From an uncultured Pseudomonadota bacterium (GTDB taxonomy: Bacteria > UBA10199 > JACPAL01 > GCA-016699445): DNA of 64,000 nucleotides. The notes below the pieces were generated by a model. The model worked only from the letters and a program-made list of their open reading frames with translations. It ran no database searches and was not told the origin of the DNA. The stretch lies in NCBI GenBank assembly GCA_964555055.1, contig CAZKQW010000001.1:262500-326499 (forward strand), given 5' to 3'. The position numbers and the translations under genes were made by a program. Below are positions 49,415-49,738 of this stretch, in pieces; position 1 is the first letter of the stretch, and the number at the start of each line of letters is the position of its first letter.

Positions 49415-49738
49415 ATGAAAAGAAACGACGCCCCCATCGTTAAAGGTATCTTGAAAGAGGAGCTGGACCGCGCACGCGCGCTGCAAGCAAAGTACGAGAG
49501 GAAGATCCAGGAATACCCTCCAGGGTATCTTCTCAAGAGAAAGCGGGCGAGCGGGAAGCTGTATTATTACCTCTCCTATCGTCAGGGAGGGCAGATGAAA
49601 CAAGAGTACCTGGGGCCGCTCGAGCCCGCTGAGCTGAAAAACTATGAAAAGAAGATCGAGGAGAAAAATGCCCTTCGAGGACAACTTATCGAAGTGAAGA
49701 AGAACATCAAATATCTGGAAAGGCTATTGCGCAAATGA
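49415..49738 (+). CDS. small (107 aa) highly charged coiled-coil protein; putative regulator/antitoxin-like partner
   Basis: ORF right after the operator array. Lys/Glu/Arg-rich, with a Gly-flanked segment PPGYLLKRKRASGKLYYYLSYRQGG. The stop overlaps the next start (ATGA at 49735-49738). AT-rich codon usage unlike the host genes. Confidence 0.5.
   Translation: MKRNDAPIVKGILKEELDRARALQAKYERKIQEYPPGYLLKRKRASGKLYYYLSYRQGGQMKQEYLGPLEPAELKNYEKKIEEKNALRGQLIEVKKNIKYLERLLRK

Follow-up and report, generated by a model that had tools for sequence, protein, structure and literature searches.

What does a small gene do that stands directly ahead of a predicted nucleotidyltransferase, and behind an array of inverted repeats, in the genome of an uncultured Pseudomonadota bacterium? 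The gene lies at positions 49415-49738 (plus strand) of a 64,000-nucleotide stretch of DNA (contig CAZKQW010000001.1, positions 262,500 to 326,499), all of which was analysed and which we call the window, and it encodes a protein of 107 amino acids (aa). A first-pass annotation of the window had put the protein forward as a candidate repressor or antitoxin and as the binder of the upstream operators. We found comparative support for this proposal: the small gene and the operators occur together even without the enzyme, the operator class tracks residues of a predicted β-sheet in the small protein, and the enzyme has a predicted MenT-like fold. In our reading of these sequences the small protein is probably an autorepressor that binds four half-sites upstream of its own gene. 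We also lean, with rather less assurance, towards its being both this autorepressor and the neutralising partner of the nucleotidyltransferase, in a two-gene module that resembles a toxin-antitoxin system.

The small gene is a genuine open reading frame (ORF) with an ATG start. A word-indexed search returned ten homologues with 52-68% identity, all of 102-139 aa and with E-values down to 1e-35, and an exhaustive profile search returned 824 representative clusters (50% identity) at E ≤ 0.001, nearly all of ~100-110 aa; since these numbers are far past chance, we take the gene to be real, as had been claimed. Longer family members were considered as informative fusions and dropped, their starts being mis-called or their extra sequence holding no identifiable domain. 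When one genome per species was scanned, 129 relatives of the small protein were found, and 80 loci were kept, from Omnitrophota, Planctomycetota, Nitrospirota, Deltaproteobacteria and other groups. The protein had been described as very basic and acidic. It is certainly basic (K17, L15, E12, R10, Y10 and D2; 27 K+R vs 14 D+E; isoelectric point 9.9), and the suggested balance of basic and acidic residues is not there. Precomputed Pfam tables give PF20586 (DUF6788) for the window protein and for most of its close homologues. Fresh scans found sub-threshold DUF6788 matches in 5 family members out of 11 and in 13 out of 126 (E ≤ 0.01 for the 13), which span strand 3 and the C-terminal helix; the best has an E-value of 3.9e-5, all that were scored fall below the Pfam gathering cut-off of 27.2 bits, and the window protein itself has no match in fresh Pfam (hmmscan), NCBIfam or PADLOC scans. 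The family thus fails DUF6788 membership at that cut-off, and from its sequences we regard it as an uncharacterised family, weakly related to DUF6788, of which the window protein would be a stand-alone domain. Sequence-profile searches of the PDB with the 11- and 126-member alignments gave only noise (coiled coils, PARP), a Foldseek comparison with the BFVD viral library gave nothing significant, and a PHROGs scan gave no recurrent match.

An AlphaFold2 model of the small protein, computed with the family alignment, has a mean predicted local distance difference test score of 90.4, with helices at residues 5-32 and 71-106 and strands at residues 38-43, 49-57 and 60-67. The predicted fold is a long helical hairpin that carries a three-stranded antiparallel β-sheet at its tip. 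On the plus strand the N-terminal helix of the hairpin, or stalk, corresponds to 49427-49510 (codons 5-32), the β-sheet head, PGYLLKRKRASGKLYYYLSYRQGGQMKQEYLG, to 49520-49615 (codons 36-67) and the C-terminal helix to 49625-49732 (codons 71-106); the evidence for the head comes from the model, from conservation, from the class differences described below and from profile-profile alignment with hhalign. There is no helix-turn-helix (HTH) in the predicted fold, which bears out the first-pass annotation, and the segment PGYLLKRKRASGKLYYYLSY, which had been called β-hairpin-like, is indeed predicted to form strands, as strands 1 and 2 of the three-stranded sheet. Conservation in the family is highest in the sheet: in a set of 126 diverse members E16, P35, G37, Y50, Y52, R56, Y65 and G67 are near-invariant, almost all of them in the sheet. 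The sheet segment carries 7 K/R residues vs 1 D/E, and on the model we propose that it is the DNA-reading surface of the small protein. Its pattern, G-x-L...G-x-x-Y-x-Y-L...G-K...Y-L-G, may resemble that of integrase arm-binding domains, which are three-stranded; DNA-binding domains with such a sheet include the N-domains of the lambda and Tn916 integrases and AP2.

The stop codon of the small gene overlaps the start of the next ORF (49735-50424, plus strand) as ATGA, in agreement with the translational coupling that had been noted. This ORF encodes the proposed toxin, a 229-aa nucleotidyltransferase of Pfam family NTP_transf_8 (PF12281), also annotated as "GSU2403 family", with GS...DxD...E motifs. 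It scores 88.2 bits against the NTP_transf_8 model (cut-off 26.3) and is a member of that family; G28, S29, D52 and D54 are invariant or nearly so, and the GS/DxD/E catalytic residues are conserved. In a structure comparison, the nearest neighbour of its model is a fungal nucleotidyltransferase-like protein and the next are the Mycobacterium tuberculosis toxins MenT1, MenT3 and MenT4, so that the model shares its fold with solved MenT toxins. No match to DUF1814/AbiEii was found at E ≤ 1 (PF08843 and the PADLOC AbiEii models), and searching PDB sequences with the enzyme, either singly or as a profile, returned only noise and no MenT. As judged from its model, the enzyme is a structural relative of the DUF1814/AbiEii/MenT toxins and not a sequence-level member of their family. 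Around four close homologues of the small gene an NTP_transf_8 gene lies immediately 3' in every context examined, with the other neighbours varying by locus. The overlap of the enzyme start with the small-gene stop is 4 bp in the window's clade and 20 bp at 31 loci that use a GTG start, and most loci show an overlap of one of these two lengths. An adjacent pair with the small gene first and overlapping frames is the generic layout of a toxin-antitoxin system, and sequence comparison points to a conserved unit of two genes, the small gene and the NTP_transf_8 nucleotidyltransferase; of the cassette that had been proposed, the first two genes do travel together and the third is not a member. 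Several close nucleotidyltransferase homologues with 53-60% identity (P0199, P0201, P0209 and P0211; L171:974-1948) are extended at the C-terminus by a domain of ~100 aa that contains an internal repeat, F.DG..LKA..LN; ahead of these enzymes, too, stands the small gene, with which they overlap by 4 bp.

Within 170 bp of DNA upstream of the small gene, a single 11-mer occurs four times, and its copies form two inverted repeats. The arms of the first, IR1 (49310-49351), are TGTGCAGTACA (49310-49320) and TGTACTGTACA (49341-49351), and those of the second, IR2 (49368-49409), are AGTACAGTACA (49368-49378) and TGTACTGTACA (49399-49409); in each the arm centres are 31 bp apart, and the right arm of IR2 ends 5 nt before the ATG. 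The operators assumed by the first-pass annotation therefore exist: TACAGTACA, with at most one mismatch, occurs 9 times in the window vs 2.3 expected, and seven of the nine copies lie within 49296-49409. When seven orthologous upstream regions are aligned, the four arms (ACAGTAC / GTACTG) alone are invariant and the spacer varies. The arrangement is general. At least one inverted repeat precedes the small gene in 78 of 78 loci and at least two in 54 of them, a distance of 31 bp separates the arm centres in 125 of the 152 repeats of these loci once the arms are put in a common register, and the offsets from IR1 to IR2 cluster at 53-58 bp. The half-site reads (G/T)TTACAGTACA in the window's clade vs GTTACCATACA in a distant clade. 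A diverged third inverted repeat, IR0 (49264-49308; arms TTTTTTCACTACA and TGTAGTGTAAGAA, with 19 nt between them), lies upstream of IR1 in the window, was not seen in the other loci and is possibly a relic or a low-affinity operator. An integron attC reading of the repeats was set aside because of the position of the arms inside a promoter and the identity of all four.

The placement of that promoter is derived from the related loci and not from the window. In 45 of 69 loci of the distant clade, TTGAC is found just 5' of the left arm of IR2 and TAnnnT 17 nt 3' of that arm, which gives a promoter of the form TTGACA-17-TAnnnT whose -10 box is framed by IR2. From these positions we conclude that the left arm of IR2 fills the spacer between -35 and -10 and that the -10 box lies inside IR2, an overlap of repeat and promoter which, as read from the sequence, is the classical arrangement for a repressor. 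At the corresponding positions the window has TTTCAC and TGCCAA where its relatives carry TTGACA and TATAAT, and a sigma-70 consensus scan of the window found no plus-strand promoter. The start codon follows the last operator arm by 2-11 nt, without a Shine-Dalgarno sequence, in the window (49399-49417) and also in L003, L004 and L011; in the distant clade a GGAG-type site precedes the small gene. This short distance, together with the missing Shine-Dalgarno sequence, suggests that the transcript of the window's clade may be leaderless or have a very short leader.

Which of the two proteins reads the operators, and which restrains the other, can be approached through the pattern of gene loss. 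At 71 evaluable small-gene loci the enzyme gene is intact directly downstream in 50, disrupted or a remnant in 15 and missing in 6. Among metagenome loci found with an enzyme profile (the best 80 of 517 matches, 69 of which had enough upstream sequence), a full small gene lies directly upstream of the enzyme in 68 of 69 and a partial copy in the other one. It is rare for the enzyme to be kept on its own, and frequent for the small protein to survive it. Such asymmetric decay is the pattern expected of a toxin and its antidote, the enzyme being harmful without its partner, and it argues against the reverse assignment, with the enzyme as the antitoxin as in HEPN/MNT pairs. Operators and an intact small ORF are kept in the 15 loci with a broken or remnant enzyme gene (truncated in L013, L040, L041, L045, L067, L086 and others, a remnant in L042) and also in the 6 that have no enzyme gene (L048, L049, L081, L069 and L075 among them). 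Moreover, the half-site classes (ACCATA, ACAGTA, ACTATA, ACCTTA, ACCCAA and others) vary together with sheet residues 38, 40-44, 54-55 and 63: GSLIKKK...LLLRE.GKVKFIYKG is paired with ACCATA, GYLLKRK...LSYR.G..IKQ.YLG with ACAGTA and KRN...KFKS with ACTATA, and, once the variability of each column is taken into account, Q63, Y38 and L40 are the most closely tied to the operator class. Because the operators outlast the enzyme, their class covaries with the sheet and the sheet is basic, we take the small protein to be the likely reader of the operators.

Sequence comparison also revealed a connection that the first-pass annotation had missed: other lineages have the small-protein domain and the nucleotidyltransferase joined in cis, in a single chain. 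On plasmids of Shinella, Rhizobium and Pseudosulfitobacter, "GSU2403 family" proteins 346-363 aa long have the small-protein domain at the N-terminus and NTP_transf_8 after it. The fused N-terminal domain, of ~100 residues, has the pattern helix, G-x-F...GKRY-x-Y...YVGP, helix; fragments of it carry precomputed DUF6788 (PF20586) matches, and an hhalign comparison of the small-protein family with these domains gave 93.7% probability (E-value 1.9e-7) over the sheet region. It is on the strength of this match that we regard the window protein as the stand-alone form of the fused domain. Identity is about 26-34%, and in the literature searched the fused proteins are likewise uncharacterised. Each of the three fused genes examined has inverted repeats just 5' of it; their arm centres lie 31 bp apart in L169 and about 24 bp apart in L168. 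Compared with the window module, the full-length GSU2403 proteins thus have the same two halves and upstream inverted repeats, in a fused rather than a split form and with an operator geometry that is not uniform. On a Pseudosulfitobacter plasmid (L170:1966-2037) a long palindrome stands ahead of the fused gene, its 30-nt arms 87% complementary and 12 nt apart. Fusion of this kind is a classic indication that the small protein and the enzyme interact physically.

The mechanism that we infer, from operator binding through the sheet and the geometry of a stalk dimer to the toxicity of the enzyme, its neutralisation and its substrate, would run as follows. The basic head would read one non-palindromic 11-bp half-site, and two molecules joined through their stalks would occupy both arms of a repeat, the centres of which are 31 bp, or about three helical turns (~105 Å), apart; the inverted arms would imply a two-fold symmetric dimer. 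Pairing of the stalks is suggested by the 31-bp spacing, which is fixed while the 20-bp spacer is free. The stalks, 42-54 Å long, might pair tail-to-tail or antiparallel, possibly with bending of the DNA, and this is the most speculative step. IR1 and IR2 together would cover the promoter and, as IR2 of the distant clade brackets the -10 box and the transcription start, RNA polymerase would be blocked. Translational coupling would supply the small protein in a fixed ratio to the MenT-like enzyme, which it would bind and keep inactive; loss of the small protein would free the enzyme, and the free enzyme, by analogy with MenT and AbiEii, would probably add nucleotides to the acceptor ends of tRNA. 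A second role for the small protein, as neutraliser of an enzyme that inhibits growth, is moderately likely to judge from the sequences. The fullest form of the proposal, in which a coiled-coil stalk with a three-stranded head forms a ruler-like dimer across the promoter, on 11-bp half-sites exactly 31 bp apart, as a previously undescribed DNA-binding architecture and the same protein neutralises a new and widespread NTP_transf_8/GSU2403 toxin family, is tentative, and we regard it as rather doubtful.

Several points weigh against this reading. DNA binding, complex formation, toxicity and neutralisation are all drawn from sequence, predicted structure and comparative genomics. The set of enzyme loci, being the best 80 of 517 matches, is biased to well-preserved enzymes, and some of the frameshifts in metagenome-assembled genomes may be assembly errors. 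Mutual information with the operator class, per column entropy, is 0.49 for the sheet vs 0.42-0.43 for the helices, a small contrast that is confounded by shared ancestry, and we no longer use it as proof that the sheet determines specificity. The promoter of the window is weak, with only poor sigma-70 matches, and no Shine-Dalgarno sequence stands before the ATG. Separate degradation is not open to a domain that is joined in cis to an enzyme which appears active, and this fits ill with a classical antitoxin. The sheet, finally, could be an oligomerisation element. One family member, P0022, scores 22.7 bits against PF07935 (SSV1_ORF_D-335; cut-off 22) over the sheet region, residues 31-72, and 7 of 126 members match this SSV1 integrase family at E ≤ 0.01; the window protein has no such match. 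The lead cuts both ways: in the related SSV2 integrase, according to a review, the N-terminal extremity controls multimerisation and the middle portion makes the specific interaction with DNA (PMC8371274).

An alternative that accommodates the fusion would make the small protein a DNA-binding subunit that regulates or targets the nucleotidyltransferase, and the enzyme itself no toxin but a defence effector or modification enzyme, so that the module would be a split, self-repressing two-domain enzyme. We consider this unlikely, as frequent decay of the enzyme beside an intact small gene, with the reverse near absent, is the signature of a restrained harmful gene, and as toxin-antitoxin modules typically have the small-gene-first order, the overlap and an autorepressed promoter. 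EzeT and CapRel are examples of toxin-antitoxin proteins fused in cis, and the fusion is therefore compatible with a toxin as well. A different geometry is also conceivable on the model, in which the sheets would dimerise as in prefoldin and the ends of the helices would contact the DNA. More improbable than a regulatory subunit is a scheme in which the operators are bound by the C-terminal helices of the nucleotidyltransferase, or only by the two-protein complex, with the small protein acting purely through protein-protein contacts. The small protein matches no known DNA-binding fold, and there are faint winged-helix matches in the C-terminal helices of the enzyme (HTH_34, E-value 0.16; B-block_TFIIIC, E-value 0.1); these are far below threshold, however, the operator class follows the sheet residues of the small protein, and perfect or near-perfect operators persist without an enzyme (L048, L049, L069 and L075) or with a truncated one (the six loci named above). 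Given this evidence from the operators, the purely protein-protein antitoxin that the first-pass annotation had offered as an option is unlikely.

It is very improbable that the inverted repeats act as RNA hairpins, be it as an attenuator, a terminator or a leader processing signal. The region 49300-49420 does fold strongly, into two hairpins (-37.5 kcal/mol, z = -6.2). An RNA stem would not need the same 11-mer in all four arms, however, and the arm sequence is conserved across loci; in the 45 of 69 loci with a placed promoter IR1 lies 5' of the -35 box and the left arm of IR2 between -35 and -10, where they would be untranscribed; and an Rfam scan gave no credible match to any family. Least credible of all is that the small protein is a winged-helix antitoxin of the AbiEi type (COG5340), a likeness that had been suggested from a supposed AbiEi-like wing. 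The operon logic is that of AbiE, with the small gene first, a nucleotidyltransferase next and inverted repeats in the promoter, but there is no PADLOC or Pfam AbiEi match, the predicted order of helix, three strands and helix contains no HTH and is not a winged helix, and 107 aa compares with ~200-300 aa for AbiEi. Homology to AbiEi is refuted by the sequence and by the predicted fold. An autorepressor that doubles as the antidote of the enzyme remains the reading that we favour.

AbiE (AbiEi/AbiEii) is a toxin-antitoxin and abortive-infection system of type IV, recently proposed as type VII. To our knowledge, every MenT/AbiEii-type toxin characterised is a DUF1814 protein and is paired with an antitoxin of the AbiEi, COG4861 or MenA1 type. 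In AbiE, too, the small gene comes first and the nucleotidyltransferase second, with inverted repeats in the promoter (PMC3985639, PMC7319586), and AbiEi, of ~200-300 aa, consists of two domains, an N-terminal winged-helix DNA-binding domain and a C-terminal antitoxicity domain (PMC7319586). In its proposed logic the window module resembles AbiE and MenAT: a bicistron with the antitoxin first, a nucleotidyltransferase as the toxin and repression of its own promoter through inverted repeats (PMC3985639, PMC7319586, bioRxiv 10.64898/2026.01.19.700257), features that are read here from genes and models; MenAT1 (Rv0078B/Rv0078A) of M. tuberculosis is among the closest known systems. Conserved inverted repeats that overlap the promoter are present here and would serve negative autoregulation, as such repeats do for AbiEi-type antitoxins. 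Unlike AbiEi, the small protein is a single 107-aa domain without a winged helix and has no match at E ≤ 1 in PADLOC and none in Pfam or NCBIfam, and the enzyme, unlike AbiEii, belongs to PF12281 and not to DUF1814/PF08843. The literature searched has no account, for AbiEi or Rv2827c, of two repeats in which 31 bp separate the arm centres and the 20-bp spacer is free. The same literature makes no mention of DUF6788, PF12281 or NTP_transf_8, names GSU2403 once, in a paper on the Geobacter integration host factor, and gave us no published description of the two-gene module; belonging to DUF6788, a Pfam entry without an assigned function, would thus bring no function with it. Prefoldin subunits are a structural analogue only and are not related in sequence to the small protein; prefoldin, a chaperone, is assembled by way of its strands and is unconnected to DNA or nucleotidyltransferases. 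On the models, the novelty of this MenT-like nucleotidyltransferase module would lie in a partner that is non-homologous, a stalk-and-head fold not described before and operators of unusual geometry.

The third gene (50421-51362, plus strand) overlaps the stop codon of the nucleotidyltransferase as ATGA and encodes a 313-aa protein with a weakly TIR-like N-terminus, which includes a W-x-x-I-E-E stretch and scores 22.8 bits against TIR_2 (cut-off 28). Its G+C content, 0.35-0.39, is the lowest of the island and its protein cluster has a single member. As it is absent from the 80 plus 80 related loci and was found only in the window's own contigs, we regard it as an accessory passenger outside the conserved module. 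A relationship between this protein and the C-terminal extension of some enzyme homologues was considered and rejected, the two being unrelated. Over the three-gene stretch the G+C content falls from about 0.5 to 0.35 vs 0.55-0.63 on either side. The island is flanked by pabB/pabC-like genes and by a minus-strand ORF of 248 aa with no Pfam match on record, and no tRNA gene flanks it. The pabC-like ORF, a class IV aminotransferase (48132-49244, plus strand), is 370 aa long when read from a TTG codon; its first ~85 residues are unlike native protein, and its true start is probably an internal Met near 48390.

Elsewhere, the neighbours of the module are often toxin-antitoxin or defence genes (HigBA, HipA, HEPN/MNT and SEFIR/TIR), which is consistent with toxin-antitoxin or defence islands. 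In L069 (4414-5426) and L075 (2716-3761) a small gene with intact operators is followed by a winged HTH-MNT nucleotidyltransferase and a HEPN gene in place of the NTP_transf_8 enzyme. In L042 (4528-6054) a 509-aa SEFIR/TIR protein lies 200 bp 3' of the small-gene homologue, with only a remnant of the nucleotidyltransferase, and gives a second tie between the small-protein family and TIR-type proteins. L013 (4570-5277) holds a 76-aa nucleotidyltransferase fragment and then a DUF6577 protein with a winged-helix N-terminus, which suggests that another element was inserted into the module or replaced it. Other toxin-antitoxin pairs near the module are HigB/HTH_3 (L004:95-689) and an Xre-like gene with HipA (L044:1841-3402).

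Tuberculosis biology and phage defence are both fields in which MenT/AbiEii-type nucleotidyltransferase toxins are under active study, and this locus points to a sister family, NTP_transf_8/GSU2403, whose partner is unrelated to any known antitoxin. The clean operator layout, with four identical half-sites, a fixed 31-bp spacing and the promoter in the second repeat, eases the design of DNA-binding experiments, and a small protein that spans three helical turns would, if true, be a notable case of protein-DNA recognition. At least eight operator classes paired with differing sheet residues amount to natural specificity swaps, and the split and fused forms to a natural experiment on the control of the enzyme in trans and in cis. 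If our reading is true, the module would represent a new toxin-antitoxin or defence family that extends across Omnitrophota, Planctomycetota, Nitrospirota and Deltaproteobacteria and occurs in fused form on alphaproteobacterial plasmids.

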